DNA of 64,000 nt from Pleomorphomonas sp. (GTDB taxonomy: Bacteria > Pseudomonadota > Alphaproteobacteria > Rhizobiales > Pleomorphomonadaceae). Below the pieces are notes generated by a model that saw only the letters and a list, made by a program, of their open reading frames with translations, was not told the DNA's origin and did not search any database. Both the position numbers and the translations under genes were made by a program. Location of the stretch: NCBI GenBank assembly GCA_030603685.1, contig JAUVXG010000002.1, forward strand, positions 3,415 to 67,414, given 5' to 3'. Shown in pieces: positions 3,161 to 33,511 of the stretch. Position 1 is the first letter of the stretch; each line of letters opens with the position of its first letter.

Positions 3161-3186
3161 GTCCCGGTAGCTCAGCAGGATAGAGC
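3161..3186 (+). pseudogene. 5' fragment (acceptor 5' strand plus D-arm) of a split tRNA-Arg(CCU) gene
   Basis: GTCCCGG-TA-GCTC-AGCAGGATA-GAGC. tRNA similarity ends after 3186. GTCCCGG is the exact complement of CCGGGAC at 33501..33507. Confidence 0.85.
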
Positions 3187-3195
3187 GATTTTAAG

Positions 3196-3268
3196 GGTAG
3201 GAGATTTACCGAATCACTAGAAGCGGGCGGAAATCCGATCTTCTGATAACCGGTAAGTTTACCGAACC
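3196..3268 (+). repeat. Left-arm subterminal direct repeats (putative recombinase arm sites)
   Basis: GGTAGGAGATTTACCGAATC (3196..3215) and GGTAAGTTTACCGAACC (3252..3268) share GGTArG...TTTACCGAAyC. ACCGGTAAGTTT (3249..3260) recurs exactly at 33419..33430. Confidence 0.5.
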
Positions 3269-3271
3269 GCG

Positions 3272-3300
3272 TTGAAATGCGCTGTCTCCTGAGCTATGAG
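3272..3300 (+). promoter_or_regulatory. Putative sigma70-type promoter of the island tRNA-Arg
   Basis: TTGAAA (3272..3277), a 17-bp spacer, then TATGAG (3295..3300), ending 20 nt upstream of the tRNA 5' end at 3321. Confidence 0.4.
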
Positions 3301-3320
3301 GCGGTGGAAAAATGGAGTAA

Positions 3321-3644
3321 GTCCACGTAGCTCAGTTGGATAGAGCACAGGATTCCTCAATCGTAAGTTGCATGACTGCAAATTGGGGGCTACATACCGA
3401 AAGGTTGTATGTCAATCTGCTCAAAGTCGGGGAACGCTGCGCCGGAACGATTCCGGTATGCCAATCCCGAGCCAAGCCTCGGATGCGAATTCGAGGAAGG
3501 TGTAGAGACTGGACGGGCAGTACCTAAGGGTCGCAAGGCCTAGGGTAAAGGGACAGTCCAGACCACGAACGCCGGAAGGCGGCGGCGAAAGCCGAGGTGG
3601 TATGAATCCTGGGGTCGGAGGTTCGAATCCTCTCGTGGACGCCA
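3321..3644 (+). tRNA. tRNA-Arg(CCU) interrupted by a group I intron in the anticodon loop
   Basis: Exon 1 (3321..3357) is GTCCACG-TA-GCTC-AGTTGGATA-GAGC-A-CAGGA-TTCCT. Exon 2 (3605..3644) is AA-TCCTG-GGGTC-GGAGG-TTCGAAT-CCTCT-CGTGGAC-G-CCA. The spliced anticodon loop is TTCCTAA. All four stems pair. Confidence 0.9.
3358..3604 (+). ncRNA. Group I (IC3-like) self-splicing intron, 247 nt, no ORF
   Basis: A P1 helix is possible between CCU|CAAU (3355..3361) and AUUGGGG (3382..3388), with a U.G wobble at the splice site. The intron ends in G3604. The core segments GAGCCAAGCCTCGG and GAAGGTGTAGAGACTGGACGG...CCTAAGG match, from memory, the Azoarcus tRNA-Ile intron core. Confidence 0.85.
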
Positions 3645-3971
3645 CTCAAATAGAAATGGGGTCTGCCAGAAACGGCAGCTTGCTCCGAGACGATCACAGT
3701 AGCAAATGGCGATCAATCTTAGGCGCTCGGATGAGACTCCTAAAGGTTGATGTGGTGATCCAGCTTCGTCCGCTCAGACTCGATTCGACGCATGCAGCGT
3801 ACCCGCCGCGTTGCGTCCGAGATCAAACCATTTGAGTTCGGAGCTGCCGTAATCGAGGCAGAGAACGGTTCGCCGACTGGTTGGGCGGAATCCCATAGTG
3901 ACGAACAACGGATTTGTGGTCGGCAGTTCAAGGACTAAGAATGGGGCGAGCGACCCTCGTTTAACGCTTGA

Positions 3972-4646
3972 TTACGATGCTGATTCGTTGGCTCGAAAAG
4001 AGCGTAGCGCCTCGTCGGTGAGCCGTTTAAGCCGATCATACTGGTCCTTGGCCATAATTATAGCCCCGACCGGCGTTTTGCGCGTTGTTCGAAGGCCTAG
4101 CTCGTCTAGGACAAAAAAACCGTTTGGCATCCGGTCCAGCCATTCCTTCAGACCGAGAATCGTCGACTCGGTCTCGTCTGCCGTCTGAGTGAGCGCACCG
4201 CCGACGGGTACAGCCTCGTCGATAATTCTCTTGAGCACATTACACCGGTTCGTCAGCTCGGAGATTATAGCTTTGAGGTGCTCGACCAGGTTGCCTGTCG
4301 CGACGTCCATAAGCCCTGTATCGATTTCAGCCACCTTGTCCGAGCGAAGCGGTGCATCAATATTGACATTCATTATACGGCGATACGATTCGCTCCATAT
4401 CCGGAGTAATTCTCTGTGCGAATTATAGATGGTTTGGGTTTTAGGAAACTTCGGATCTGATTTCAGCCCCTCTTCTGAGACGACCTCTGCGGTTGGGCGA
4501 ATTGGTGTTTTTCGCTTCACTAAAGCGGAGCATATGGCATTTATTGCAGTTGCTCCATCTCTCCTACTTCCATCCGGAAGACCCTCGATCCATGTGGCAG
4601 AGCGAAGCTCGGCGCTCTGAATGATGGCACCTATGCGCGAAGTCAT
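3972..4646 (-). CDS. Third, non-recombinase gene of the recombinase trio (TnpC/GmtX-like position), function unknown
   Basis: 224-aa ORF whose start overlaps the stop of the 994-aa recombinase gene by 4 nt (4643..4646), so it lies in the same operon. I recognise no motif. Confidence 0.6.
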   Translation of the reverse strand: MTSRIGAIIQSAELRSATWIEGLPDGSRRDGATAINAICSALVKRKTPIRPTAEVVSEEGLKSDPKFPKTQTIYNSHRELLRIWSESYRRIMNVNIDAPLRSDKVAEIDTGLMDVATGNLVEHLKAIISELTNRCNVLKRIIDEAVPVGGALTQTADETESTILGLKEWLDRMPNGFFVLDELGLRTTRKTPVGAIIMAKDQYDRLKRLTDEALRSFRANESAS

Positions 4647-7627
4647 TCTAGACTCCCTGCAATTCTCATGACTGATCCCGAGTCCAACGACTCAGGTAGA
4701 TAAATCGGGCCAGAGATTGAAACGTCCAGTAAACTGCGCACCTCGTCCTCAAGACCGATATCCTGGAATCTGAGTTTGCCTTCGGTTAGCGCTTTCATTT
4801 CAGTAGAGCGAACGCGTTCAAGAACGAACAAGGCATACTGGTCCATAGCTTTCCTGCAATGCTCGGGAGTTATGTTCGCCATTAGCTGCGGCGGCGCTAT
4901 CCCGGAGTATTGAAGCATAATATTCAGATAGCGATCTCTCTTGTCCTCGACGCGTTGATCTGACAAAATCTGGTGTACTCGCCCGGCCATGGTGATACGG
5001 GCTGCCTGCTCAAATTCAGATATTTCCTCATAGAGCAGTATTGCTGAGCGTTCATTCGCTATGAGCTGAATGTCAGAGGAAGAGTCTTGGGGGGAGTCCA
5101 GTAATTTTATGCTAGCGTTGCATAGCTGCTCCACGTTGAATATTGAATTCTCGACAATTTCTTGTTTGTTCTTAATGTGGAACATTTCCTTTTGAAGCTG
5201 ATCGAATTTATTCTCAAAGGCGGATTTGTCGAGTCTGCCCGCCGTCACATGTTGTTCGTAGAGAGAGACCGTTTCGTTTATTCTCGTCTCTTCCCGCGCC
5301 AAATACTGCCTTTGCTCACAGAGCTTTGTGCCATATTGCGTGAGTTCATTGAGCCAAGGCGGGCCGCTCACGAAGTGCCGGCAGAGGATGCAGGAATGGG
5401 GTTCAACCGGGCCGTAGATGCTTCTCTTGCGGCCAGCCCTATCTTCGGCAGGGCGTAATTCACCCCCGTCCGCGCATCGCGTGCCGTCGTAAGGACATAT
5501 GCCGATGGAGACATTGCAAAACTGTACCTGAGCGTTTGACGCTATTGCTTCATCAATGGCGGTTTCAGAGATGGAGACGGTCCGCTGTCGGGCCTCCTCG
5601 ACTTCCATGCGGCGTAAGTCGTCAATAAACCGCCTCTGCTTTTCCGCGGACTTCGAGACTGCCTCAGCAATTATATCAGCGACCTCGATCGGGTCTCGGT
5701 CCACATAATAGAGTGTCATTGAAAGCGTGGCATGGCCAGCGACGAGCTTTGACAGGAGCTCAATGGGCATTCCTCCGCGATGGAGATTCGTTAATCCGCG
5801 CACGCGAAAACCATGAAGGTTATACGCTGGTCGATACGGCTGTTTATTGGTCGGGTGGATCTCTACGAGTTGGACCGTGTTTCCCGGATGCTGGTTGTTC
5901 CAGCGAAGCTGGATCTCGCCGAGAAGTGCGCACCAGGCGTGATTAATCTCAGACGAAGTCACTGTCCGCCCCTCCAGGGGGCGGTTCTCCGTTGGGAAAA
6001 GACGGGCGATGGGGAATATTTCCGGCATCGCGGTTCGAGTAGTGTCCGAATAGTCGAGGGCGTTGTCGAGATAGACACCAGGACCAACCGGCCCGGAGAT
6101 CGGGTTGTGAGCCTCCTGCCATTCTCGTAGCTCCCACAGCAATTTCAAAAGCTTTGGAAGGTACCACGGCATTTCATAGGGCTGCCCGGTTTTGTTGGAG
6201 TTTACGAAAAGCCCCGTAATTGTTCTCGACTCGCCCACGATTTCGCGGGCATACCCTCTCGACGGAAACCCCCTGTGAGGTTTCCCCTCTCGATCGGCCC
6301 AGTATCCGGAATGTGGCCCAGTGTTATCTTCCCAGAGTAGTGTTTGCCCATTGAACTGGCGGACGTCGCCTTCTCCCGAGTCCAGGCGCCTGAGTTGCCC
6401 CATACGGAGAGGTACTTCGAGCATCGCCATCAGAAGCGTAGGAATCACCGGGCAATATCGGTGAACCTTCCTCCCCTTGATCTTCAGCTGCACCCGGAAA
6501 TTGGAGGCAGTTTGCACCCAGGTGCCAGGGCCACCTTCCAGGATCTCCTTCATCAGAGGTATAAATTTCTCCGGCAGAGGACGGGACCGCGAACTCCTAG
6601 GTTTCGGCAGTTTGGCAAGCGAGTTGACGAGCGTCTGGTGCTCTTTAGCGGAGACCAGCTCGACCATTGGCCCGTCTTCGTCATTGTCAGTGTACCAATC
6701 AATGATCGCCTGCGAGATCGTGCGCGCCGCACCAAGTGACCCGGCCAAACCCCGACCAACTTGACCGTGGTTTCGAGAAATCAGGAATTCTGAGAAGGTT
6801 AATCCTTGGATCTTGGTGGACACTGCCTGACGCAAGGTTTTTCCTGGTGCCGCCTCCTTCAGCCAGGTTGCCATCTCTATGATCGTTGAGTGAGCTTGCC
6901 GCGGTTTCAGCTTCGAGTAGCGGCTGAACGTTTTATGGAATTCGCAAAACTCAGGGTCGGGCAGCTCCTTGGAGTATGTGAACGCCAACCAGCTTGGGTT
7001 TTTGCCCTCGGACTTAGTGCGATACTTTCGGCTTTTTGCGGTCAGGGTCTTGTCGTCGAAGATTGACGCCAGACCGACAATGACCTGAGCGAGGCATTGG
7101 GAAGTAAGTTCGCTCGTGCCGATTAACTCCCTGTTCCAGTCCGCACCGTCGGGCGTTCTGAAGATGTCCACCACACCATGAATGAAATCCAAGGACGCAT
7201 TGGCAACGCTCCAAAGGCCGGACGTTGCCATGGTGAAGACGGCCAGAATGCGTTCGATCCTGACCTGTGCCTGGTCTTGCTTGGTGAGAGTGTCCATGAA
7301 CTTTAACGCGCCCGCTTCGGCGAGTGCCTCCCGGAGCTCTTGGCCCAGATCGGACATGCCATTGAACCGCCGGCAGAGGTCCTTATGCAGCGGAGTTTTG
7401 AAAATCGTGTACGGCGAAAGGCAAACACCCTCCTCGTACAGCACGTCGACTGCTTCAAAGTGCTCGTCGGTAAGGTGCCGTGTCGGGCCGACTGACTTAA
7501 TGAGATCAACCGCCCACTTGGTTTGGGCGGATGGAGCGATCTCGCCATCCGCATATCTTTCTTGGCGTGAACAATTAACGAAAAGCTCGTCGCCATTCCT
7601 GCCAGTATAAAAGCTGGGCATCGGCAA
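4643..7627 (-). CDS. Large tyrosine recombinase/integrase (994 aa) with a long C-terminal extension
   Basis: Catalytic-domain motifs are present: LRMGQLRRLD (Arg), LHGFRVRGL (HxxR) and AGHATLSMTLYYV (His...Tyr). About 350 aa follow the Tyr, including a Cys-rich stretch (CNVSIGICPYDGTRC...CILC). Confidence 0.8.
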   Translation of the reverse strand: MPMPSFYTGRNGDELFVNCSRQERYADGEIAPSAQTKWAVDLIKSVGPTRHLTDEHFEAVDVLYEEGVCLSPYTIFKTPLHKDLCRRFNGMSDLGQELREALAEAGALKFMDTLTKQDQAQVRIERILAVFTMATSGLWSVANASLDFIHGVVDIFRTPDGADWNRELIGTSELTSQCLAQVIVGLASIFDDKTLTAKSRKYRTKSEGKNPSWLAFTYSKELPDPEFCEFHKTFSRYSKLKPRQAHSTIIEMATWLKEAAPGKTLRQAVSTKIQGLTFSEFLISRNHGQVGRGLAGSLGAARTISQAIIDWYTDNDEDGPMVELVSAKEHQTLVNSLAKLPKPRSSRSRPLPEKFIPLMKEILEGGPGTWVQTASNFRVQLKIKGRKVHRYCPVIPTLLMAMLEVPLRMGQLRRLDSGEGDVRQFNGQTLLWEDNTGPHSGYWADREGKPHRGFPSRGYAREIVGESRTITGLFVNSNKTGQPYEMPWYLPKLLKLLWELREWQEAHNPISGPVGPGVYLDNALDYSDTTRTAMPEIFPIARLFPTENRPLEGRTVTSSEINHAWCALLGEIQLRWNNQHPGNTVQLVEIHPTNKQPYRPAYNLHGFRVRGLTNLHRGGMPIELLSKLVAGHATLSMTLYYVDRDPIEVADIIAEAVSKSAEKQRRFIDDLRRMEVEEARQRTVSISETAIDEAIASNAQVQFCNVSIGICPYDGTRCADGGELRPAEDRAGRKRSIYGPVEPHSCILCRHFVSGPPWLNELTQYGTKLCEQRQYLAREETRINETVSLYEQHVTAGRLDKSAFENKFDQLQKEMFHIKNKQEIVENSIFNVEQLCNASIKLLDSPQDSSSDIQLIANERSAILLYEEISEFEQAARITMAGRVHQILSDQRVEDKRDRYLNIMLQYSGIAPPQLMANITPEHCRKAMDQYALFVLERVRSTEMKALTEGKLRFQDIGLEDEVRSLLDVSISGPIYLPESLDSGSVMRIAGSLE

Positions 7628-7680
7628 TTTCCTATATGGAGGAGGGGGGAGATAACCGGTTAAGCAATGGCCCTGTGACG

Positions 7681-9357
7681 TTACAGCTGCTGGAGAAACG
7701 TCTCTCGCAGACGGCGATACGGATCGGGCGGTGATGTGCCCGAGCTTGCGGCTTCAAGCAAAGTGTCGATTTCATCAGGGGTTAGTCGCGTGTAGACCTT
7801 ATGAGCCTCAAGGCTGCGATGGTGCATGCACTGTCGGATTACCTCGCCATCCACACCTGCAGTAAAAAGAAATCTTCCGTAGAAATGTCTTGCACCGTGA
7901 GGTGTCGTGCCAAATGCCTTTCGCGGCATTGCCAGATCAGAATCATCGAAGCGCCGCCCAGTCCTGACGATTGCGGCACGCCAGGCTTCATCGAAGGCGG
8001 ACATCGTGTAGGGATCACCGGCAAGCGTATCTTTTGAGCCACGCCCGACCAAAAGGAACGGATGGTCGAGTGCCGTTTTTGGACGCGTAGCAATCAATCG
8101 CGGGCGAGTTTCAAAAATGTAACGTCTCAGTAGAGCAGCGGTGCGGGCAATCAGAGGATCGATAGGCAGCCAATATCCCGGAGTGCCCACGTCATCGTCC
8201 GCCACGCCTTTCCATCCGGCCGCGAATGGTCCAGCCGCCAGCGTTCTCGCGGTCCATCCGAGTCTCTGGAGATAAACACCACGAGAGATTGCGCTTCCCT
8301 GGGCATCTCGAATTTGTCCGTATTCGGGATGATGCAGAAAGATCCACGGAGTGTTTCGAATGAACTGCACGTCTGAAAGGAATAAGTGAAGAGGCTCGCT
8401 TTTCCTTAGGCCCAAGGCGAAAATGAGATGAGCAAGCAGGCAAGCGGTGTCGTCGCAGCGCCCGCTATCGTTTGTAAATCCCCCATATAAAAACCGGCCA
8501 AGATAACGTGCCGGGAAAGTTGGAACTTTGCCAGTGCGGGCCGGTGAAGGCTTTAAAATATGCGGGAAGGCATGAGAGGGCGCGCGCCGGGTCGTTTTAA
8601 CGTGACCAAGCAGTGAAGTCTCCCGACGTCTTACAAGCTCAAGCGCCAATCGCAGGGAAACGATGGGGTCATTCGCTACCTTATGGGTTGTAATCGCCTC
8701 CACCCAGACGTTGGCCTTGTCATCGGATCTCAGCCACATGAAGTGCCGCGTTAGGGCGGAGAGAAGCACGTTAGCCTGCCGTCTTCCCAGTCCCGTCCAG
8801 TGGAGTCCGGTTTGATCGAAAGCCCGTCCGTCCTCATCCACCTGTATGGTGCCGTGCAAAAGACATCGAACGAAGCTTCTGAAGAGCTGGCGTTCGGTCC
8901 AACTGCCATGCGGTTTAGGAATCGATTGCCCGCCTCGGTGCGACGCCAGCGCAAAATCCACGAACAGGCCCACCGAGCGTGCAGTGTTTTTCATCCATGC
9001 ATAGGACATCGACGAATAATCATCGAAAAAATCCAGCAAGGGGGCATAACGAACGACCCGCTTCGTGTTCGCGTCAGTCGGAAGTGCGAGATACAGCACG
9101 GGCCAATGCGCTGTAGCACTCGCGTCGTGAACAGTCTGTCGCACAACAACATGGAAGAGTCCGCGTTCCGCGGTCCTGAACGAGATCGACTTCTGCATAT
9201 CGGCGACCGAAAAGTTGCGCTGGGGTGAACGGTGTTCTGGATCTTCGCATGTCGGTTCTGCACCGTACGGCAGTGCCAACACGCTGCGGACAGTCCGATC
9301 GGAAAGCCCCGGACACCGCTTGAAGGCCAACGTGGGATTCACGGGCGCGCGCCCCAA
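7681..9357 (-). CDS. Tyrosine recombinase/integrase (up to 558 aa; start uncertain)
   Basis: Motifs GLRKSEPLHL (Arg), HGARHFYGRF (HxxR) and HHRSLEAHKVYTRL (His...Tyr). It is the first gene of the minus-strand trio. Confidence 0.8.
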   Translation of the reverse strand: MGRAPVNPTLAFKRCPGLSDRTVRSVLALPYGAEPTCEDPEHRSPQRNFSVADMQKSISFRTAERGLFHVVVRQTVHDASATAHWPVLYLALPTDANTKRVVRYAPLLDFFDDYSSMSYAWMKNTARSVGLFVDFALASHRGGQSIPKPHGSWTERQLFRSFVRCLLHGTIQVDEDGRAFDQTGLHWTGLGRRQANVLLSALTRHFMWLRSDDKANVWVEAITTHKVANDPIVSLRLALELVRRRETSLLGHVKTTRRAPSHAFPHILKPSPARTGKVPTFPARYLGRFLYGGFTNDSGRCDDTACLLAHLIFALGLRKSEPLHLFLSDVQFIRNTPWIFLHHPEYGQIRDAQGSAISRGVYLQRLGWTARTLAAGPFAAGWKGVADDDVGTPGYWLPIDPLIARTAALLRRYIFETRPRLIATRPKTALDHPFLLVGRGSKDTLAGDPYTMSAFDEAWRAAIVRTGRRFDDSDLAMPRKAFGTTPHGARHFYGRFLFTAGVDGEVIRQCMHHRSLEAHKVYTRLTPDEIDTLLEAASSGTSPPDPYRRLRETFLQQL

Positions 9358-9571
9358 ATTGGGGATGACGCGTCAGTACGTCGTCTGACCCACACCAGAC
9401 GGGAATGTCAGGAGATTACAACCCGTTATTCCCTGCGATCTGCCGAGCGGGCCTTTGGCCTCGCGAGCGGAAGCGCACCCGTTGATGCGAACAGGTCTCT
9501 GGTGGGAATCAACAAGGAATGCTAGAAGGGATGCATACGACCTCCAGACCCGGCCCGGGGATGGTGTGTCG

Positions 9572-9603
9572 GTGGGTGGATGCGCGCCAACGCATCCACC
9601 CAC
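9572..9603. repeat. Perfect 13-bp inverted repeat (hairpin or operator) in the divergent region between the recombinase operon and the cargo
   Basis: GTGGGTGGATGCG (9572..9584), loop CGCCAA, CGCATCCACCCAC (9591..9603). It is followed by a second palindrome, AACGATcgaATCGTT, at about 9608..9622. Neither strand has a T-tract. Confidence 0.5.
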
Positions 9604-9687
9604 ACTTAACGATCGAATCGTTCACGTAGCCTGCAGACTATATCGCGCCGGTGATCCGTACAAGAACAATCGTACTTCGGACGAACA

Positions 9688-10194: not shown

Positions 10195-10289
10195 TGGGCG
10201 TCGGCTCGTGTGGACGATGTATATTGGATTTGCTTTCTCTGAGATCGGTATATACTTGTTGAAGGCGAATTTTTGATTGCTTAATTGCG

Positions 10290-11369: not shown

Positions 11370-11503
11370 GCATGTATGCCCGCATGGGCGAGACCCGAGC
11401 AGGACTAGGCTGACGAGTTGTTTATTGTTGCTAAAGCTAGGAAGCATCCGAGAACCTGGATCCCGACCTTCTGGGGCACTTTGGGCCGAAATTCTCCAGG
11501 AGG

Positions 11504-11791: not shown

Positions 11792-11873
11792 GGCTCTGCG
11801 TGGCAGCTGACGAACTCGCCAGTTCTGAGCCAGCCGATTGAACGCGTCAAACGAGCGCATCCAGAAGACAAGA

Positions 11874-21419: not shown

Positions 21420-21434
21420 GGCATTCCCGACATG

Positions 21435-21779: not shown

Positions 21780-21795
21780 GTAAGGAGCAGTCGAA

Positions 21796-23701: not shown

Positions 23702-23729
23702 AACCATCGCCTCCCGTCGCGTCGAGTTC

Positions 23730-24098: not shown

Positions 24099-24302
24099 AG
24101 GGGCACCTAGCTTCAAGGAAAGTCCCTCATAACAGCCAAATGATCGTCTGGCGAAGACCTCGGGGAAATCCGCCAATCTCTGGGCTAAAGTCCGGGAGCG
24201 CTTTGGGCCAGGTTCGGACACCGAGGCGCGACCGGAAGGCCCGGACGGACGCAGCACAGAAGTAGCCAAGAGGCGATCGCTGAGGGGGGCGGTTTTTATT
24301 CC

Positions 24303-24566: not shown

Positions 24567-27311
24567 CTATGTTCCATGTCGCTCGTTGAACGACTTGACG
24601 ATTTCGGAAAGGGCCTTTGCCTCATCTTCCGAGTAGGGTTTGGCGCCAAACTCGGTGATGGTGGAGAGCGGTTGCGCATCTCCTACCTGAAGGGAAGCGG
24701 ATCCCACTTCTTTTTGCTGGACGCGGAAAGCACGCAGACTCAGCATCTCGTCCGTGATTTCAACTTCAGGTGGTTGCGCCCGGTTTGGCAACATCCGATC
24801 TAGCCAATCCGCGTAGGCATATAGCTTTTCAAGGCTGGTATCACCAAGCTGAACGATCTGAGCGACAAAGCTGTAAAACCGCTTGTAGCTTCTCAGAAGC
24901 TGCCGGAATTCCTCGTGTCGGCCTTCGTCGTCGTCGGCCTCAAATCGCGCTATGGCGTTGCGTACCAGCGCTTCCAGCGTAACGCGGTCTTCTGTCGCAA
25001 GCAGGCCCTTGAAAAAGACCGAGGCAAAACGCTCAATCTCGCCATTATCGAGATAGCCGAATGTGCGAATGCGTGTCTCCAACTGGTAGATTTGGTTCTT
25101 ATCAGAGACAGCTTCGAGGCTCGATACCTCATAGAAGGGGCGGAACGCCTCTTTGATCTCATCCATCGTATTCTGGAAGTCGAGAATGAAGGTCCGCTCT
25201 TTGCCTGGGTATGTGCGGTTCAGGCGGGAAAGAGTCTGCACCGCTTGAAGTCCCGCCAACTTCTTGTCGATATACATGCCGCAGAGCTTCGGCTGATCGA
25301 ACCCTGTCTGGTATTTTTCCGCTACAATAAGGACTTGATAGTCCGGGCTGTCGAAGCGCCCGGGGAGCTCGGTCTCGCTGAACTCGTTCAGCTCCGCTTC
25401 CGAATAGGAGGTGCCGTCGACATGAAGCTCGCCCGAAAAGGCGATGAGGGCCTTGAGGTCCGGATAGCCTTTGTCCTCGATATACGCCTTCAGGGCGAAA
25501 TAGTAGCGGAGCGCGCTTTCCCGGCTGGATGTGACGATCATTGCTTTCGCCTGACCATTCAACTCCGGCCTGACATGCCGCCTGAAATGCTCGACGATGA
25601 CCTCAACCTTCTGGCTGAGCGCCGTCGGATGTAGGGCGGCAAACCGGGCGACCTTTCGTTGCGCCCGCCGTGTGTCTAGCTGAGGGTCATCCTCAATGGC
25701 TTTTTCCAAGGCATAATAGGCCTTGTAAGTCATGTAGTGTTGCAGGACGTCGAGGATGAAGCCTTCCTCGATGGCCTGTCGCATAGAGTAGAGGTGGAAG
25801 GGATGCGGTAATCCATCCGTGCCAAATGTGCCGAAACGCTCAAGGGTGACGTTGCGAGGCGTCGCAGTGAAAGCGAAGTAACTGATGTTAGGCTGAGGGC
25901 CGCGCTGACGCTGATATTCTGCGATAAGCTCCTCAATCTCATCCGAGGTTCTAGATTCCTCCTCGCGGCTGAGGGCGTCACTCAACGCCTGAGCGCTCTT
26001 GCCCGACTGCGAACCATGTGCTTCGTCGATCAGGACGGCGAAACGCCGTGAGCCTTGGCCGGAAATCACACGAAGGTGTTCCGTGGAGAACTTCTGAATG
26101 GTCGTAATGATGACCTTCGCTTGGCCCTCAATGGCAGCTTTGAGCTGCCGCGATGTGCCGTCGATCTTGCGAACCACGCCGGGAGTCTGCTCGAACTGAG
26201 CGATCGTGCCTTGAAGTTGCCTGTCGAGAATGACGCGATCCGTGACGACAATCGCTGTATCGAAAATCGGCTCGTCGGCAGCGTCATGTAGCGTGACCAG
26301 CCGATGTGCCGTCCATGCAATGGTGTTGGATTTCCCCGATCCCGCCGAATGCTGGATGAGGTAGTTCTTGCCACTGCCGTTAGCGCTCGCATGAGCGAGC
26401 ATTTTCAGAACCGCGTCTATCTGGTGAAAGCGCGGAAAGATTAGCGCCTCCTTGCCGTCGCGCGTGTCTAGGTGGAGAAACCTCCCGATAATGTCGAGGA
26501 GAAGGTCGCGTGAGAAGATTGCACGGCCTTCCGGCTGATCAGCCCACAGATAGGCAACCCGGAAATCCCCTTCGAGGTTGGGATTTTCTGCTCCTCCGTT
26601 GTGCCCCCGATTGAAAGGAAGAAAGGTGGTTTTGCCGTTCTGAAGCCGAGTGGTCATGGAGACATTGTTCTGATCCACAGCAAAGTGAACCAGTGCACCC
26701 CGCTTGAAGGTCAGTAGCGGCTCATTCGCCGGTGCCCGGTCGTAGCGATATTGGCGCTCGGCATGCCGAAAGGTTTGGCCAGTCAACGTATTTTTCAATT
26801 CCAGTGTGGTCACAGGAAATCCGTTGACGAACAGAGCAACGTCAATAGCGTTCTCGTTCTTGGCGCTGTAGCGAAGTTGATTAATAACGCTGAGTATGTT
26901 GGCCTCGAACAGCTTTACCAGTGCCGGATTGACACCTGATGCCGGCCTAAAGGCCACAAGGAAAAATTTCAGGCTCGGAACGAGCTTCAACCCATTGCGC
27001 AGTACGTCCAGTGTGCCGCGCTGCTTCAGTCCCTGCTCAAGCTGCTTGAAGAACTCGGCTTCGGCGGACGGTCCATAGTGACTTTCCAGCTTCGCCCATT
27101 CGTCAGCCTGCGTTGCCTTGACGAACTCAATCACCAGCGCCTTGTCGAGCGCGAATGCCCGGTCATAGTCCGCCGGAGAGCGAGGACGATAGCCCTGCCG
27201 CTCGACCAGCGCCTTGCACAAATGGACTTCCAGTACTTCTTCCCGGTGAACGTTATCTTCGGCTAAGCCTTTGGCGTAAGGGTGGGATGTCGGCGGTTGT
27301 TCGTAGTTCAT
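24567..27311 (-). CDS. hsdR: Type I restriction enzyme R subunit (helicase/endonuclease), terminated by an in-frame TAG
   Basis: Helicase motif I is HSAGSGKSNTIAW and motif II is LIDEAHGSQSG. The ATG at 27311 overlaps the upstream stop as ATGA. Confidence 0.9.
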   Translation of the reverse strand: MNYEQPPTSHPYAKGLAEDNVHREEVLEVHLCKALVERQGYRPRSPADYDRAFALDKALVIEFVKATQADEWAKLESHYGPSAEAEFFKQLEQGLKQRGTLDVLRNGLKLVPSLKFFLVAFRPASGVNPALVKLFEANILSVINQLRYSAKNENAIDVALFVNGFPVTTLELKNTLTGQTFRHAERQYRYDRAPANEPLLTFKRGALVHFAVDQNNVSMTTRLQNGKTTFLPFNRGHNGGAENPNLEGDFRVAYLWADQPEGRAIFSRDLLLDIIGRFLHLDTRDGKEALIFPRFHQIDAVLKMLAHASANGSGKNYLIQHSAGSGKSNTIAWTAHRLVTLHDAADEPIFDTAIVVTDRVILDRQLQGTIAQFEQTPGVVRKIDGTSRQLKAAIEGQAKVIITTIQKFSTEHLRVISGQGSRRFAVLIDEAHGSQSGKSAQALSDALSREEESRTSDEIEELIAEYQRQRGPQPNISYFAFTATPRNVTLERFGTFGTDGLPHPFHLYSMRQAIEEGFILDVLQHYMTYKAYYALEKAIEDDPQLDTRRAQRKVARFAALHPTALSQKVEVIVEHFRRHVRPELNGQAKAMIVTSSRESALRYYFALKAYIEDKGYPDLKALIAFSGELHVDGTSYSEAELNEFSETELPGRFDSPDYQVLIVAEKYQTGFDQPKLCGMYIDKKLAGLQAVQTLSRLNRTYPGKERTFILDFQNTMDEIKEAFRPFYEVSSLEAVSDKNQIYQLETRIRTFGYLDNGEIERFASVFFKGLLATEDRVTLEALVRNAIARFEADDDEGRHEEFRQLLRSYKRFYSFVAQIVQLGDTSLEKLYAYADWLDRMLPNRAQPPEVEITDEMLSLRAFRVQQKEVGSASLQVGDAQPLSTITEFGAKPYSEDEAKALSEIVKSFNERHGT

Positions 27312-28351
27312 TCGCCGCCCCCAGAGACCGGAACCCAAATCTGTTTCAGGGGCAGCTTCACACGGGTCTCGTCGGAAAGGTCATTGTAGGTTCGGAACAG
27401 GGCGCGAAGGAGATCCGGCATCTGCCAGAGACGGAGCTTGAAGAAATTGTTGTCCAACTCCTTCTGGGCAACGCTATTGACCCCGCCGATGCTGACAAGA
27501 AGCCCCGTTCTCGCCTGCGTATTGGAAACAGAACCGATCAGCCGCAACACTACGTCATGGTTGGCTGCGCCATCGCTGGATTTCACCTGAACACAGATGC
27601 GGTCCTCGCCCAGGCCGAGCATGCCGCCAGCAGCGAGGATATCCACGCCACCATCAGGTCCAGGTGGAGAAACCTTAGTTGTATAGCCCTCCACGCGGAG
27701 TATTTCCGCCACGAGGTTCGCCAATGCATGGCCGGCGAACTCGCTCTTGATCAGCGAAATGATCTGCTGGTTCGCAATGTCCTCGATGTCGGTGGCGATT
27801 TCGTCCGCGTCCTCCTCATCATGGATGACGGGGACGGGCTTCGTGCCCTGCTTACCCAGAAGGGCACCGGGGTCTGTTCCCATTTTCAGCACGGATCGAA
27901 CTCGATCCAGCGCATTGTTGCGTGTGATCTCGCAGATGGTCATGAATGCGCCGAAAGAGTGCCGCAGGTCTTGCTTGAAGGAATCGCGCGGGACGGACTC
28001 GTTCAGCCATTTCACGGGCCGAGAATGGCGATAAGGGTCTCCGACATTGAAGGCATAGGGGCCGGTCACTTCGCCAATGGCAACGCCGGTCGTCAGCTTA
28101 CGCGGCATGACGACAAGATCCCCGATGGCAATTGTGTGTGCAAACTGGTTGAGCTGGGCGGAGAAGTTCTTCAGCCGGTTGAGGCCTTCTCCCGGCATGA
28201 CGTCGTGCAAATGCGCCAAGATGGCGTCGCGACCATTCAGGTTCGACAGGTCGCCGACTTCCAGAAAGCCCGGCAGCAGCCTGCCGGACAAGATGGCGGC
28301 AAGCTCGCGCTCACCCTGCTTGCCTGCGCGAACGATCCAAAGGCGCGTCAC
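27308..28351 (-). CDS. Mrr-like restriction endonuclease (PD-(D/E)xK, Mrr_cat) embedded in the Type I operon
   Basis: The C-terminal domain reads GPDGGVDILAAG...ICVQVKSSDG (D...QxK). The GTG at 28351 overlaps the upstream stop as GTGA. Confidence 0.7.
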   Translation of the reverse strand: MTRLWIVRAGKQGERELAAILSGRLLPGFLEVGDLSNLNGRDAILAHLHDVMPGEGLNRLKNFSAQLNQFAHTIAIGDLVVMPRKLTTGVAIGEVTGPYAFNVGDPYRHSRPVKWLNESVPRDSFKQDLRHSFGAFMTICEITRNNALDRVRSVLKMGTDPGALLGKQGTKPVPVIHDEEDADEIATDIEDIANQQIISLIKSEFAGHALANLVAEILRVEGYTTKVSPPGPDGGVDILAAGGMLGLGEDRICVQVKSSDGAANHDVVLRLIGSVSNTQARTGLLVSIGGVNSVAQKELDNNFFKLRLWQMPDLLRALFRTYNDLSDETRVKLPLKQIWVPVSGGGE

Positions 28352-28965
28352 GGCGTCTCCCCTCTCGCCATGCGGATTATCCAATTCTGCTCGACAAGCG
28401 CCGCGTTCAAAGCCGCCATTGCCACTTTCAGGTGCAGGATATCGACATGAATTTCGTCGATGAGAGGCGTGCCGTCCTTGGCTTTTGGCGTACCGTACTC
28501 GCCGTAGCGGAACGCCTCCGATCCACGATCGAGAGCCGCCAGTTCGTCACAGCGCTTGATGACCCAAGGCGGCACCGTTTTGCCAGCTTGCTGCTTGTGA
28601 TGCGCGTAGCTGCGAGCAAGCTTTCCGAGGTCGTGAATGTCTTTCGCCGCACGGACCTCTGGCGGCAGCCCTGCCTTCAAGAGAAGCTCGAAGGAATGCC
28701 GATAGAGAAACAGCGCCGCATTCGCGACTTGATAGTCTGCAACGCGCTTTTCAAGAATGGCCGCAATCAGCTCCTCGGCAGCGGCAAAGTATTGCTCGGC
28801 CAAAGCCCCATCACGCTCGGCCTGGATGAAAGGGCGGGAGAAGCCGCCGATCACGAAACCGAGCGGACCGCTCCATTCGTCGGGTCGCTCATGCTCCCCT
28901 GACAGAGGTTCGAAGAGCGGGCGCGACATTGCCTCTTTGGTGAAAAGGTCAGCTGATATTCGCAT
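28348..28965 (-). CDS. Hypothetical all-alpha protein (possibly HEPN-like), 205 aa
   Basis: The ATG at 28965 overlaps the hsdS stop as ATGA; the longer track ORF starting at 29100 would overlap hsdS by 136 nt. LYRHSFELLLKAGL and SEAFRYGEYG are only weakly HEPN-like. Confidence 0.5.
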   Translation of the reverse strand: MRISADLFTKEAMSRPLFEPLSGEHERPDEWSGPLGFVIGGFSRPFIQAERDGALAEQYFAAAEELIAAILEKRVADYQVANAALFLYRHSFELLLKAGLPPEVRAAKDIHDLGKLARSYAHHKQQAGKTVPPWVIKRCDELAALDRGSEAFRYGEYGTPKAKDGTPLIDEIHVDILHLKVAMAALNAALVEQNWIIRMARGETP

Positions 28966-30869
28966 CAGAGCAGCCTCGGCGTCATAGTCGCCTTGGTTTT
29001 CGGTCCTTGGCCCCTTGGGGTAAGGCTGTGACGCTTCATCCAGCCAAGCCAAGGCGTCAGGTCCGCAGCGCTGAATTTTTCGCCCTTTTCCGTGTGCCAC
29101 TCGTTCAGCACACCTTCTATGATCGTTGCGTCATTTGGTGTTCTACCGTCAAGCAGGGCATCATTCCACACAGCGTAGAGTGTGGCGACGGCCTCTGTGG
29201 CGCGGCGATCGAGATCGCGGAGCATAGTGATGAGGTTACGGAGTGCATCGGCCTTGGGGCCAAGCAAGGCGTCCAATTCCGCCCTGTGCTGCCCAGCTTT
29301 GGACAAGGGCGCGTAGGTGACAGCGGTTCCGGTTCCATCCGGCTGACGGGCGCGGTAAAAGCCAGCCGCTTCCACCCCGCGCTCGGTATCCTCGACCAGC
29401 GCCCGATCGAGCGGCCCCGCCGCCTCGCGTAGATAGTTTCCCCGAAGCCCGTCAATGCCAAGATGGGCCTCCGCGAGGTAGAGTTCTTTTTGCAACTTCA
29501 CCCGACCGAATTTCGGGTTACCTTGATGCCGGTCGATGATCTCTGCCCCTATAAGCACGCGGAACTTGCTTCGGTCGGGCTTGGTCGTGATGGCTGGCAA
29601 CTTCTCGCGAACGTCGATTTGACCGGTGACAGCGTCTGTGATGAGCGCTGCACGGCGCTGACGCAATAACTCAATGCTGGTAGAAACAGACCGGAGAAGC
29701 TTGTCCACTCCGACAATGCGGGCATCGATGGCTGCAGCAATATCGGCCTGCTCCTCAATCGAAGGCAGCCAAACCACCACATCCATGAACTTTGCGTGTT
29801 CAAGACGCCATTGGTCGGTTCGGATCCCGTTCGAGATGGTCAGGAACAGCGAAGGCATCGGCTGAGCACGCAAAAAATGATGCATAAAGCGACTGACCAT
29901 AGGGGCCACTGGTCTGTAAACAAGGTAATCGGGACTTGTGATACCCCGCAATTCAGAGATACCCAGTGAACCTTGCCACGCTTTCATTTTATTAATGACT
30001 AGGTCACCCGGCTCAACGAGCTGGTAGGAGGACAAGTCATCTGGTGTTTTGTTTATGTTGTCGTCGCGAGAGGACTTTAATATTACACCAAAATCTCGAT
30101 AGACCGAGAGAACGTCGAGATCAGACATACCCTGCCGCTTGGTGATGCGAAATAGGTATCGCATTCGATGGGGCTGCCAACCGTTTGGTACGAATGGAAA
30201 CCAGCGATTTCCTGTCTCGACGCGTTCGCGACGCAGGTTCAAGCCAGTGCGAATAAGCTCCTGGATGACTCCCGTGCGCTGTTCATCAAGAACTTTGACC
30301 AGCCGTTCTTTCTTTTCAATTAGTTGGTCGAGGCGGGCGGTTTCGCGGTCAAGATAGGCGGCGATAGCCTTTTGGATGTCCAGATTGGGGACGGGGATAA
30401 TTACGGAGCCGATGCCGTGCAGGGTTAGCCCATATCGCGTAACACCCTGCGCAGTATTACTTAATGCCTCGTGTGTTGGCTTCGCCTTCAGCGCCCAAAA
30501 GAGATAGGAGCTAACGATTTCCGACGGCTTAGGACGCAAGATAGCTAAATGGTATCCGCAAATAACGCCCTCGGCGCTAGGCTCTACGAGAGCTGGGATT
30601 GCGATGTCTTCCGGTGTCTCGCTATCTTTCGTAATGATAACATCGCCGGCGCGAAGCGCGAATTTTCTGATTTCCTGTGGCTTCGCGGAGCCCATATTGA
30701 ATTCTATCTGGTCGGTGATGCGGTCGTTATAGTAGACATCTACGTAGTTGCAGAGGCGAACAGTCTCTTCGCCTTCTTCAATTATTTTGTCCACGTTGCT
30801 GGATTTTATAATCGCCAGCCGACGAACCGGTTTCAGCGGCCATCGTTCGTTTGCATCGAGCGATGTCAT
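28965..30869 (-). CDS. hsdS: Type I R-M specificity subunit fused to a ~200-aa extra C-terminal domain (Panacea/DUF4065-like?)
   Basis: There are two TRD-type halves, and the usual HsdS ending is present (ALITDAVTGQIDVRE at about aa 410-425). The ORF then continues for ~200 aa that contain GRVKLQKELYLAEAHLG...AAGPLD. Confidence 0.8.
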   Translation of the reverse strand: MTSLDANERWPLKPVRRLAIIKSSNVDKIIEEGEETVRLCNYVDVYYNDRITDQIEFNMGSAKPQEIRKFALRAGDVIITKDSETPEDIAIPALVEPSAEGVICGYHLAILRPKPSEIVSSYLFWALKAKPTHEALSNTAQGVTRYGLTLHGIGSVIIPVPNLDIQKAIAAYLDRETARLDQLIEKKERLVKVLDEQRTGVIQELIRTGLNLRRERVETGNRWFPFVPNGWQPHRMRYLFRITKRQGMSDLDVLSVYRDFGVILKSSRDDNINKTPDDLSSYQLVEPGDLVINKMKAWQGSLGISELRGITSPDYLVYRPVAPMVSRFMHHFLRAQPMPSLFLTISNGIRTDQWRLEHAKFMDVVVWLPSIEEQADIAAAIDARIVGVDKLLRSVSTSIELLRQRRAALITDAVTGQIDVREKLPAITTKPDRSKFRVLIGAEIIDRHQGNPKFGRVKLQKELYLAEAHLGIDGLRGNYLREAAGPLDRALVEDTERGVEAAGFYRARQPDGTGTAVTYAPLSKAGQHRAELDALLGPKADALRNLITMLRDLDRRATEAVATLYAVWNDALLDGRTPNDATIIEGVLNEWHTEKGEKFSAADLTPWLGWMKRHSLTPRGQGPKTKATMTPRLL

Positions 30870-32917
30870 CCTGCCACCTCCTTGAGGAGGCCAGCAATGT
30901 CTGCTTCCAACGTCTTTAATTCCGCGTCGATGTCCGTAAGCTTGCGGGGCGGGACATAGCGGTAGAAATAGCGGTTGAAGCTGATTTCATAACCGACACG
31001 GCCGACGCTCTTGTCGGTATCATCCCGATAGGTCTCGTCTACCCAGGCGTCGGGCACGAAGGGCGTCACCTCGCGTGCGATATAAGCTTTCCAGTCTTCT
31101 ACCAGGGGGACGAGTTCGTAATCGCGAAGCTCCGGGTCCGGCTCAGGATTGCCATCGCCGTCGCGACATATGGCGGCGGTCTCGTCCCGCTCTGACAGAG
31201 CTGCGAGAATTGCCTTTTTGACTGGCGCGCCAATTCGGATGCCTGCGCCCTTCAGCGCCTTGGTTAAGGCAGTCTCGAAGGTCTGACGATCCTTGAACAG
31301 CGTATTGGATAGGCGGTTCGTCACGACATTCAGCACGTTATCCTGATCAACGAGATCCAGCTTCAGAAAGGGCTTGGCGAGCATTAGCCGCTCAATGCGC
31401 TCCTTGGTCGCCTGAAAGTTCAGCCTCAGCGGTCGTTCGACTTTGATTTCCCGATACCCAAAATCCACCGTATCGAAAACCTTCGAAACTGCCTCCCACG
31501 GTCCGCCTCCATTCGCCATTTCGTGGAAGATACGAGCGATCGTCTCGCGAGCATCGTCGCGGATTTCCCGGCGCTTGGAGCCAAGATTTTTGCGCATCGG
31601 TTTCCAGAATTGCTCGCCCGAGGCATCGATGAGCTGGACCTTTCCGCGCCGATCCTTGCGCTTGCGGTTGGTCAGCAGCCATACGTAGGTCTGGATGCCG
31701 GTATTGTAAAAAAGGTCGGTGGGGAGCGCGACGATGGCTTCAATCCAGTCGTTCTCCAGCATCCAGCGACGGATTTCGCTTTCGCCGGATCCCGCACCGC
31801 CGGTGAAAAGCGGCGAACCGTTCATGACGATGCCGATCCGTGAGCCGGCTTCGTCGTCCCGCATCTTGGAAATCATGTGCTGGAGGAAGAGAAGCTGTCC
31901 GTCCGAAATGCGGGGCAGGCCAGCGCCGAAGCGTCCGTCCTTGCCTTTCGTCTCGGCTTCTTCCTTGATGGGTTCCTGATACTTTTTCCAATCGACGCCA
32001 TAGGGCGGATTGGACAGCATATAGTGGAACTTCCGGCTCTTGTGGGCGTCGTGCGTCAGCGTGTTGCCGAAAGCGATGTTCTCTGGATCGTGCCCTGTGA
32101 CCAGCATGTCCGATTTGCAAATGCCGAAGGACTCGCCATTAAGTTCCTGGCCAAAGAGTTCGACGCGGATGTCCGGATTGAGGTCGCGCATTCCCTCTTC
32201 GGCAAGAGCCATCATGCCGCCGGTCCCGCATGCCGGATCATATACTTGGCGGATGATGCCCTTGCCAGTGAGCGCCTGCGAATCGTTGACCAAAAGAAGG
32301 TCGACGATCAGGCGGATGACCTCGCGGGGCGTGAAATGCTCGCCTGCCGTTTCGTTGGAAATTTCCGAGAAGCGACGGATCAGATCTTCGAACAGATAGC
32401 CCATGGCTAGGGTCGAAACCTCAGAGGGTCTCAAGTCTAGCGTGGCGAACTGCTCGAACACCTTCCACAGGATCGCTGCTTCATTCAATCGCTTCAGTTG
32501 GTCTGTGAAGAGGAACTTGTCGAGGAAAACGTCTCGGACGGATTCAGAAAAATCGCGAATGTAAGCCACTAGGTTATCGTGCACATGCCCCGGGCTTTGA
32601 GAGCGAATGCGTGAAAAGTTAAGCTGGCTCGTATTGTAAACAAGCAGACTTCTACCATGACTGCCGAACTGCGAACTAGCCGCAGCGTACAACATCATAT
32701 CACGAGTTTGTTCGTCGATACCTTGCGGCAGGGACGCGTAAGCCTTCAGGATCGCTTCTTTGCTCGGCTCAAGGATGCAATCAAGCCGACGGAGCACCAC
32801 GAAGGGTAGGATGACCTTGCCATATTCCGATTGCTTAAAGTCGCCGCGCAGCGTCTCGGCAATCTGCCAGACAAAGTTTGCCAGTGACTTCGCTTGCTGT
32901 AGCGTATTGTCGTCCAT
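30866..32917 (-). CDS. hsdM: Type I R-M N6-adenine DNA methyltransferase subunit
   Basis: HsdM_N-type N-terminus (FVWQIAETLRGDFKQSEYGKVILPFVVLRRLD), motif I DPACGTGGM and motif IV NPPYG. Confidence 0.92.
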   Translation of the reverse strand: MDDNTLQQAKSLANFVWQIAETLRGDFKQSEYGKVILPFVVLRRLDCILEPSKEAILKAYASLPQGIDEQTRDMMLYAAASSQFGSHGRSLLVYNTSQLNFSRIRSQSPGHVHDNLVAYIRDFSESVRDVFLDKFLFTDQLKRLNEAAILWKVFEQFATLDLRPSEVSTLAMGYLFEDLIRRFSEISNETAGEHFTPREVIRLIVDLLLVNDSQALTGKGIIRQVYDPACGTGGMMALAEEGMRDLNPDIRVELFGQELNGESFGICKSDMLVTGHDPENIAFGNTLTHDAHKSRKFHYMLSNPPYGVDWKKYQEPIKEEAETKGKDGRFGAGLPRISDGQLLFLQHMISKMRDDEAGSRIGIVMNGSPLFTGGAGSGESEIRRWMLENDWIEAIVALPTDLFYNTGIQTYVWLLTNRKRKDRRGKVQLIDASGEQFWKPMRKNLGSKRREIRDDARETIARIFHEMANGGGPWEAVSKVFDTVDFGYREIKVERPLRLNFQATKERIERLMLAKPFLKLDLVDQDNVLNVVTNRLSNTLFKDRQTFETALTKALKGAGIRIGAPVKKAILAALSERDETAAICRDGDGNPEPDPELRDYELVPLVEDWKAYIAREVTPFVPDAWVDETYRDDTDKSVGRVGYEISFNRYFYRYVPPRKLTDIDAELKTLEADIAGLLKEVAG

Positions 32918-33006
32918 CCCTGATCCTGTCTACTGACGCCGCGTCCGCGTCACTGAGCAGAACCGAGCTGACGCCGCCAGACGCGAAACGGCAGACACAT
33001 GTATTT

Positions 33007-33025
33007 GTTAACCAATTGGGTTAAC
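33007..33025. promoter_or_regulatory. 19-bp palindrome upstream of hsdM (candidate operator)
   Basis: GTTAACC-AATTG-GGTTAAC, about 90 bp upstream of the hsdM start codon. Confidence 0.3.
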
Positions 33026-33276
33026 GCCCCCCTAATCGCCGACGTCATAACGGCTTACCCCGAGCGCGAGCATATGCGTCGGCGATTGAATTGTCTGCCC
33101 TGAAAATGGACGGATCCGGTTCGGCTTCGAGTTACTATGCTGCCATCACTTCTTGCCAAGCAACCAACCGAGGGAGCCATAACGGGGCGAGGCTTGGTTT
33201 CATTGAGCTCGTGGCGAGCGGATGCAGGTCTACAAGCCCGGCCTTTGGCCGGGTCCAGCACATTCGTGTTGGCCAC

Positions 33277-33341
33277 GCTGGGCTTAACGACGGGGGCGGC
33301 TACGGCGCTACGGAGGGGCGCGCCGCCCCCGTCTACCCAGC
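33277..33341. other. Long GC-rich composite hairpin in the non-coding right arm of the island
   Basis: GCTGGG (33277..33282) pairs with CCCAGC (33336..33341). GACGGGGGCGGC (33289..33300) pairs perfectly with GCCGCCCCCGTC (33322..33333), leaving a 21-nt loop. Confidence 0.5.
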
Positions 33342-33418
33342 TCCTCGCGTTATCGGGTAGGCCTCGATCGACAGAGGCGAAATTGCGCCCCTCGTCTGCG
33401 GGAAGCTGGGCTCCGCGT

Positions 33419-33448
33419 ACCGGTAAGTTTCGGGAGATCTGAACCCAC
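33419..33448 (+). repeat. Right-arm subterminal repeat related to the left-arm repeats
   Basis: ACCGGTAAGTTT (33419..33430) is identical to 3249..3260. GGAGATCTGAACCCAC (33433..33448) resembles GGAGATTTACCGAATCAC (3200..3217). Confidence 0.5.
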
Positions 33449-33456
33449 TCTTAAAT

Positions 33457-33511
33457 GAGCAACGGTTTCCTAAACCGTAGGTCAGGGGTTCGAATCCCTT
33501 CCGGGACGCCA
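33457..33511 (+). pseudogene. 3' fragment (D-stem 3' strand through CCA) of the split tRNA-Arg(CCU)
   Basis: GAGC-A-ACGGT-TTCCTAA-ACCGT-AGGTC-AGGGG-TTCGAAT-CCCTT-CCGGGAC-G-CCA. No acceptor 5' strand or D-arm is present immediately upstream. Confidence 0.85.

Follow-up and report, generated by a model that had tools for sequence, protein, structure and literature searches.

The 64,000-nt stretch of Pleomorphomonas sp. DNA analysed here (assembly GCA_030603685.1, contig JAUVXG010000002.1, positions 3,415 to 67,414; hereafter the window) contains a 30,270-bp genomic island (3187..33456) lodged inside a tRNA-Arg(CCU) gene. With a probability of roughly 0.85, we interpret it as a Gamma-Mobile-Trio (GMT) island of an alphaproteobacterial branch that split the resident tRNA-Arg(CCU) gene and carries an intron-bearing replacement to offset the damage. 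It is identified as a GMT island because its left end encodes distant GmtY and GmtZ homologues as well as a small third gene. The island belongs to a known family, described in 2023-24, and is a new twist rather than a new system.

The resident gene is present as two pieces on the forward strand. Its 5' fragment (3161..3186, GTCCCGGTAGCTCAGCAGGATAGAGC) comprises the acceptor 5' strand and the D-arm as far as GAGC, and its 3' fragment (33457..33511) comprises GAGC, the anticodon arm with CCT, the T arm, the acceptor 3' strand, and CCA. A preliminary description of this DNA, made by a model without database searches, had taken these pieces for halves of one gene separated by 30,270 bp of lower G+C, and both points hold. 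Joined at GAGC, 3161-3186 and 33461-33511 form a 77-nt sequence with a cloverleaf fold, and G+C, from a level of ~0.66, drops to ~0.52-0.61 within 3001-34000 compared to ~0.63-0.70 outside. A 30-nt probe across the tRNA junction matched more than 120 genomes, and at 41 of the 120 genome loci that were fetched the joined 77-nt sequence occurs as an identical, intact tRNA gene. The uninterrupted site that the description expected among relatives is present in two metagenome-assembled genomes, L011 (JAGSYU010000092.1) and L096 (JAEZHI010000045.1), which contain the intact tRNA without an insertion and are syntenic with the window on both sides (81% identity in the left flank and 85–88% in the right). 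Because these loci carry the uninterrupted tRNA, 3187-33456 is an insertion. The match to the joined tRNA and the empty sites are well beyond chance. Neither junction retains a complete tRNA; as proposed, the resident gene was broken by the insertion and not regenerated.

A second, complete tRNA-Arg(CCU) gene lies on the forward strand 134 bp inside the left end of the island. Its 5' exon (3321..3357) ends with the anticodon CCT and its 3' exon (3605..3644) includes an encoded CCA; between them, after anticodon position 36, is a 247-nt group I intron (3358..3604). The base preceding the 5' splice site is U (T at 3357) and the last base of the intron is G (3604). This intron-containing gene had been noted in the preliminary description, and mapping of its exons and intron bears it out, as the 77-mer obtained by splicing in silico is called by ARAGORN as tRNA-Arg(cct). 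The spliced 77-mer is identical to the broken resident gene at 60 of 77 positions. Because of the group I intron inside, the spare tRNA is invisible to standard annotation: ARAGORN calls no tRNA in the window or in the related loci, and Rfam at gathering thresholds finds no match in the window. The gene was detected through a relaxed Rfam search, BLAST, and regular expressions. In the relaxed search, RF00028 matches 3368-3584 with 32 bits (E 2.6e-6, 701 bases searched), which is below the gathering score of 50 that Rfam sets for group I introns; a Rhizobium copy of the intron scores 35.9 bits against the same model. The Rfam seed does not include bacterial introns, and a cut-off of ~20 bits has been applied to them (Williams, bioRxiv 10.1101/2020.01.27.920355). 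Since ARAGORN is silent and the Rfam score is below the cut-off, the intron call leans on splicing in silico, compensatory changes, and known homologues.

The comparative evidence for the intron-bearing gene comes from distinct sequences of its family. After splicing in silico, each of the 52 calls that ARAGORN makes on them is tRNA-Arg(CCU). The island intron is 78–79% identical to the copies in Rhizobium and Mesorhizobium. An RNAalifold consensus of 53 distinct sequences contains 76 pairs, with the cloverleaf closed across the intron as well as intron helices; in 32 of these pairs both sides vary, and non-canonical combinations make up only 1.2% of cells, a count that covers the non-pseudoknotted helices. 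The exons are nearly invariant across islands despite the divergence of the GmtZ-like proteins, and the rare changes are compensatory, as seen for the acceptor stem (GTCTACG/CGTAGAC) and the T stem (GCAGG/CCTGC). Taken together, the comparison indicates that the carried tRNA is under selection.

We assign the island intron to the classical alphaproteobacterial tRNA-Arg(CCU) introns, class Arg.5Ug, subgroup IC3. It shares with those of Agrobacterium tumefaciens and Bartonella bacilliformis (BbgpI; PMC7717549) the insertion point after CCU, the U and G splice bases, and the core (Arg.5Ug/IC3; bioRxiv 10.1101/2020.01.27.920355), and they are likewise left unannotated by standard tools. The Bartonella homologues splice in vivo and self-splice in vitro, and the intron-bearing gene is the sole tRNA-Arg(CCU) found in Bartonella (PMC7717549). 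However, the known introns were described in resident chromosomal genes, whereas the copy on the island is mobile cargo.

The recombination module spans 3972-9357 on the minus strand, ~0.8–6.2 kb from the left end, and thus marks one border of the island. It includes a GmtY-like tyrosine recombinase of 558 aa (7681..9357; PF00589) that matches NF040693 (recomb_GmtY) over 414 of 441 profile positions (E 3.8e-67), with 227 bits against an equivalog cut-off of 340. Next to it is a GmtZ-like integrase of 994 aa (4643..7627) of the VPA1269 family, which scores 84 bits against PF13009 (Phage_Integr_2; cut-off 25.4) and 260 bits against NF047926 (integrase_GmtZ; E 2.7e-77, cut-off 600). In Rhizobium, Agrobacterium, and Mesorhizobium, source records give the name 'VPA1269 family protein' to homologues 33–53% identical to this integrase. 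The third gene of the trio (3972..4646, 224 aa) overlaps the gmtZ stop codon; it is GmtX-like in position and size only, and is kept beside gmtZ in all related loci. A 168-aa open reading frame (ORF) on the plus strand (9688..10194) is divergent from gmtY and has no match in Pfam, NCBIfam, or PADLOC scans. In tblastn searches, it has counterparts at the same position in six related loci (L121, L125, L127, L212, L213, and L214; 31–64% identity), and it is a candidate fourth core gene for the alphaproteobacterial branch.

GmtY, GmtZ, and GmtX of the GMT islands correspond to VPA1270, VPA1269, and VPA1268 (Mahata et al., bioRxiv 10.1101/2023.03.28.534373). According to that preprint, one border of an island is marked by the trio, the cargo includes defence and offence genes, entry is at specific 'naive insertion sites', and islands within genes often encode a homologue of the broken gene, 'possibly to compensate'. 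Vibrio GMT islands form circles and transfer replicatively in a trio-dependent manner, with no loss of the donor copy seen, and the island in tRNA-Gly of V. parahaemolyticus 04.2548 is experimentally mobile (Extended Data Fig. 4 of the same preprint). Its Dataset S2 includes Vibrio islands in tRNA-Arg(UCU) and, at the site GTGGTCCCATAGCTCAGCAGGATAGAGCGCAGGATTCCTAATCCTG... of a tRNA-Arg(CCU), an island of Neorhizobium sp. SOG26 (NZ_CP025512.1). The main text is silent on tRNA, and neither a replacement tRNA nor an intron is reported in the available text. The preliminary description had called the addiction-like arrangement in the window one that it had not seen described; as a claim of novelty that does not stand for the general form of the arrangement, as both carried homologues of disrupted genes and tRNA-Arg targets are in the GMT preprint, while the intron-bearing tRNA form is absent from its available text. 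The description had also taken it as established that tRNA-targeting islands normally integrate at the 3' end of the gene and regenerate it, which applies to classical integrases but not to GMT-type recombinases.

The pairing of a truncated tRNA with an intron-bearing spare is kept in at least 16 related islands from Rhizobium, Agrobacterium, Mesorhizobium, and metagenomes, all with the same D-arm break and the same intron-bearing tRNA, and is therefore not an accident of one genome. For a context test unbiased by the tRNA, seven GmtZ homologues were picked through a protein search and the neighbourhoods of those recovered were then inspected; in four, the fragment adjoins the intron-bearing tRNA, in R. 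rhizogenes both are present but rearranged, and in Agrobacterium leguminum neither lies within 10 kb. Among the contexts fetched, the layout of the window recurs in Rhizobium phaseoli (L121, GmtZ 53% identical), Mesorhizobium (L127, 48%), Agrobacterium rhizogenes (L214, 49%), and two Logan contigs (L212, 63%; L213, 70%): host DNA is followed by a D-arm-truncated tRNA-Arg 5' fragment, the island end, the intron-bearing tRNA-Arg(CCU), and the trio on the opposite strand. In R. rhizogenes (L215, GmtZ 33% identical) the layout is rearranged, with fragment and tRNA both present. The intron-bearing tRNA usually starts 160–167 nt after the start of the fragment and in the same orientation. The GmtZ-like proteins across islands are only 29–70% identical to that of the window. 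L213 is flanked by the same host genes as the window; the islands in Rhizobium, Agrobacterium, and Mesorhizobium share another host flank, in which an M20 peptidase gene comes first. A metagenome scan for the junction between intron and 3' exon contributed ~10 further islands; it produced 83 pattern matches, six of them due to chance. A tblastn search against plasmids returned only distant GmtZ relatives (<30% identical) and no complete related island.

We also considered whether all intron-bearing tRNA-Arg(CCU) genes are island-borne, and rejected this possibility. Among 36 metagenome copies with at least 2.5 kb of downstream sequence, only eight adjoin GMT genes, and a crude neighbour-joining tree mixes island-borne copies with the others.

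GAGC is present at both junctions, and the exact break point is therefore ambiguous by 4 bp. The left terminal region (3187..3262, plus strand) contains TTTAAGGGTAGGAGATTTACCGAA (3190-3213) and CGGTAAGTTT (3251-3260), and the right terminal region (33421..33456, plus strand) reads CGGTAAGTTT ... CCCACTCTTAAAT; the two ends are imperfect inverted repeats of each other. CGGTAAGTTT has only two copies in the whole window, one at each end of the island, lying 65 nt in from the left end and 36 nt in from the right. An alignment of nine left junctions, each from an independent locus, shows the left-end motifs at the same distances, and the ends of related islands share TTTAAGGG..GG....TTTACCG (+4 to +28) and CGGTAAGTTTA (+63 to +75). 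Every left junction breaks at GGATA[GAGC]. Where other islands have GAGC, locus L184 has GATG and locus L189 has GAAT; this pattern suggests that these four bases constitute a strand-exchange (coupling) region, in which a match to the target would not be required. With the break placed before GAGC, and with no other placement, the island is flanked by the D-stem arms GCTC and GAGC, which are 4 bp long; the insertion-site inverted repeats scored by Mahata et al. are those of at least 5 bp. No direct repeat of a tRNA 3' segment is found at the island ends, as the junctions share GAGC only. For a simple island, the right junction analysed is that of this window, and flanks of relatives were fetched up to 10 kb.

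Based on these observations, we propose the following model. The GmtY-like recombinase, the GmtZ-like integrase, and the small third protein would recognise the D-arm region of tRNA-Arg(CCU), and the island would insert at or around GAGC (tRNA positions 22-25) without regenerating the resident gene. It brings with it the anti-phage cargo and its own tRNA-Arg(CCU), situated between the left end and the trio and oriented like the broken gene. The transcript of this tRNA would have to self-splice to yield a functional tRNA; if it is expressed and spliced, AGG decoding would be restored. By analogy with Vibrio GMT islands, transfer would be replicative and proceed via a circle, for which the predicted joint is ...CTCTTAAAT[GAGC]GATTTTAAGGG.... 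The carried tRNA would lower the cost of insertion, and later loss of the island would be costly as a side effect.

Codon usage is relevant to this model. Per 1000 codons, AGG occurs 3.7 times and AGA 0.3 times in host genes, compared to 7.9 and 8.3 in island genes. As the host uses AGG at this frequency, a tRNA with a CCU anticodon would be useful to it. Since no loss of the donor copy is seen in Vibrio, the resident gene would remain broken if transfer is replicative here as well, in which case a cell that later deleted the island would lose its only known tRNA-Arg(CCU). Compensation is the best reading because the carried anticodon always matches that of the broken gene and because the tRNA adjoins the junction.

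Several results weigh against this interpretation. The GmtY and GmtZ scores are below the NCBIfam equivalog cut-offs, which makes this a distant branch. The third protein has no Pfam or NCBIfam match up to E 10 and no PDB sequence match that would connect it to GmtX, and a Foldseek comparison of its AlphaFold model (pLDDT 72) to PDB yields no fold match. The polarity of the trio appears to be the reverse of that in the Vibrio archetype, as in the window the trio points to the nearby end; gmtX is the outermost of the three genes, and upstream of gmtY lies the cargo. A consensus scan for promoters and terminators around the island tRNA found nothing, including no promoter-like site upstream. In Agrobacterium leguminum (L125), neither the tRNA fragment nor the intron-bearing tRNA is present within 10 kb. 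Moreover, the tRNA-Arg inventory covers the 64,000-nt window of the genome.

Two related loci have a more complex structure. At 2112-2760 (oriented coordinates) of L166, a metagenome contig (Ga0222427_102877), two D-arm-truncated tRNA-Arg 5' fragments are followed by a complete intron-bearing tRNA. The second fragment occurs 415 nt after the first and is preceded by CATCGGCTACGA, which is also found upstream of several other island tRNAs, and is then followed by an island end. All three tRNA-Arg parts contain the acceptor stem GTCCACG, which is typical of intron-bearing copies. At 7330-17200 of the R. rhizogenes locus L215 (JAAMCZ010000010.1), gmtY, gmtZ, and gmtX come after the host 5' fragment, and their polarity is opposite to that in other islands. 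A right-end-like sequence abuts the decayed 3' part of an intron-bearing tRNA beside gmtX, and a second complete intron-bearing tRNA is located 3 kb further on. The L215 region fits a rearranged or nested GMT region, and both loci fit the insertion of one island into the replacement tRNA of another.

We put forward a further possibility tentatively and at somewhat less than even odds: the 5' exon of the replacement tRNA keeps the target and would act as a landing pad on which islands would stack, each destroying the tRNA of its predecessor and supplying a new one, and GMT islands would move the intron-bearing tRNA-Arg(CCU) between alphaproteobacteria, so that lineages formerly without the intron would become dependent on self-splicing. 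A 1999 report by Paquin et al. is said to have described a sporadic distribution of the tRNA-Arg(CCU) intron, which the landing-pad and vehicle roles would, if true, help to explain.

The same genes could also be regarded as an addiction module, the preliminary description having suggested an addiction-like arrangement; in this reading, the carried tRNA is selected mainly because it makes the host dependent on the island, and loss of the island entails loss of AGG decoding. The unregenerated resident gene and the use of AGG by host genes agree with this, as would, by analogy, the replicative transfer of Vibrio islands, for which no loss of the donor copy was seen and which would leave the resident gene broken. 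However, precise excision, if it occurs, would restore the gene; the stacked L166 locus shows that a carried tRNA is expendable once a newcomer brings another; and the inventory of tRNAs seen is that of the window alone. In addition, tRNA-Arg(UCU) can usually decode AGG in part, and E. coli can do without tRNA-Arg(CCU); both points count against addiction. Sequence alone cannot separate dependence from simple compensation; we consider selection mainly for dependence to be unlikely, while dependence as a side effect of compensation is plausible. The higher AGG usage of the island genes would alternatively fit a role in codon supply, whereby the tRNA serves the AT-richer genes of the island, as phage tRNAs do, and its match to the target is incidental. 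This is quite improbable, since the largest mismatch between island and host is in AGA, yet no tRNA-Arg(UCU) is carried, although codon supply would favour that tRNA. The carried anticodon is also invariably the one of the disrupted gene, and one island after another has its tRNA beside the junction.

Another explanation concerns the intron, which might split the recognition site in the DNA and so shield the island tRNA from GMT recombinases. In Rhizobium-type hosts, the 5' exon of the island matches the published target over positions -19 to +11 relative to the break, with one base excepted, and the intron lies beyond. L166 and L215, however, indicate insertion into intron-bearing copies, which makes such immunity very improbable; based on the tandem fragments of the former and the right end of the latter, we reject it. 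It is scarcely credible that the island is a classical P4-type tRNA island or prophage, or that the tRNA pieces arose by chance or from a pseudogene. The tRNA location, the lower G+C, and the tyrosine recombinase domains are shared with classical islands, but the ends lack a direct repeat of the tRNA 3' part, crossover took place in the D-arm with only 4 bp shared, and phage or conjugation genes are not found. A chance or pseudogene origin is opposed by the identity of the joined tRNA to intact genes and by synteny on both sides. The junction sequences and the empty sites rule out both.

The island resembles the GMT archetype, VPaI-6 of Vibrio parahaemolyticus, in having GmtY-like and GmtZ-like (VPA1269, PF13009) genes and a small third gene in a row at the border, as well as in site-specific and intragenic insertion, an empty site, defence-rich cargo, and a carried homologue of the disrupted gene. 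It differs in its sub-cut-off recombinases, in a third protein without detectable GmtX similarity, in a trio that points to the nearby end, and in the additional 168-aa divergent ORF; furthermore, its spare is not a protein gene but a tRNA gene that holds a group I intron. GMT islands already known from tRNA genes have their target inside the tRNA, as in the window. The sites in Vibrio tRNA-Arg and in Neorhizobium include the D-arm sequence GGATAGAGC, and the tRNA-Arg(CCU) targeted in Neorhizobium is of the type seen as fragments in Rhizobium, Agrobacterium, and Mesorhizobium. Classical P4-type islands share the tRNA landing site; there, however, the crossover is in the 3' half, the gene is regenerated from a copy of this segment that the element brings, and direct repeats are formed, whereas the window island splits the D-arm and provides a separate, complete replacement gene. 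Tn554-type transposons (with TnpA, TnpB, and a small TnpC) and the GInts, BIM, and RIT modules presumably have a similar composition of two large recombinases and a small protein. We also take Tn554-type elements to be alike in inserting site-specifically without long repeats and with junction bases that differ from the target, as do GATG in L184 and GAAT in L189. Tn554 is not mentioned in the available text of the GMT preprint (bioRxiv 10.1101/2023.03.28.534373).

Measured against that same available text, what appears to be new is that the spare is an intron-containing tRNA overlooked by annotation pipelines, that it is a conserved trait of the alphaproteobacterial GMT branch, accompanied by a precise D-arm break and conserved end motifs, that the spare tRNA is itself targetable and islands can stack, and that islands may serve as a vehicle for spreading the tRNA-Arg(CCU) intron. 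The GMT habit of carrying a spare of what is broken would thereby extend from protein genes to a tRNA gene, and two separate literatures, on mobile defence islands and on the patchy alphaproteobacterial tRNA-Arg(CCU) introns, become linked, with a concrete route suggested for horizontal spread of the intron. The short, highly conserved D-arm target and the end motifs offer a handle on site choice and cleavage by GmtY and GmtZ. A genome in which annotation finds no tRNA-Arg(CCU) may hold one on such an island.

The remainder of the island is occupied by a cargo block (10290..32917) annotated by Pfam, NCBIfam, and PADLOC. This cargo is, by homology, anti-phage defence, as in GMT islands, and includes HyoA, PDC-S31, PDC-S02/Mrr, and type I restriction-modification. 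From left to right, the block encodes a PDC-S31/DUF2971 protein (10290-11369), a helix-turn-helix (HTH) protein (11504-11893), an FtsH-like AAA+/M41 protein (11838-13940), the NACHT antiphage protein HyoA (14390-18769; 1469 bits, above the NCBIfam cut-off), an Xre/MbcA-type antitoxin-like protein (18776-19402), an M78 peptidase with its HTH partner (20173-21419), and a DUF6791-ThiF protein (22496-23701). These are followed by hsdR of a type I restriction system (24567-27338), an Mrr/PDC-S02 protein (27308-28384), hsdS (28965-30869), and hsdM (30866-32917). Pfam scans of the window found no phage or conjugation genes. The block of DUF2971/PDC-S31, HTH, and FtsH-like AAA+/M41 genes beside the trio (10290-13940) recurs at 3664-7213 of the Logan contig L212 with 67–81% protein identity, and is possibly a single defence system; the cargo of L212 is otherwise different and includes AbiJ.

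A 30-nt stretch of the D-arm and anticodon arm of tRNA-Arg(CCU) is found exactly in Prochlorococcus, Clostridia, and Spirochaetota, among others (within L001-L120), and because it is common to very distant bacteria, the potential target of this island family is extremely widespread. Directly 5' of the resident tRNA, a perfect 10-bp G+C-rich hairpin (GCGGCCGGAC N5 GTCCGGCCGC) occupies 3131-3155 of the window and is kept in the empty-site relatives L011 and L096.

With 3419-3606 of the window as the query, the intron core also matches, at 76.6% identity, an unannotated stretch that more than 1,200 enterobacterial resistance plasmids carry. On pCTX-M3 (NC_004464.2, ~61823-62123; L216 2925-3225), this stretch is a complete-looking tRNA-Leu(UAA)-like gene split by a group I intron that scores 36.8 bits in Rfam, below threshold, and adjoins a gene for an AAA-family ATPase as well as aac(3)-IId. 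The pCTX-M3 intron may be included in the proteobacterial tRNA-Leu classes counted by Williams (bioRxiv 10.1101/2020.01.27.920355).

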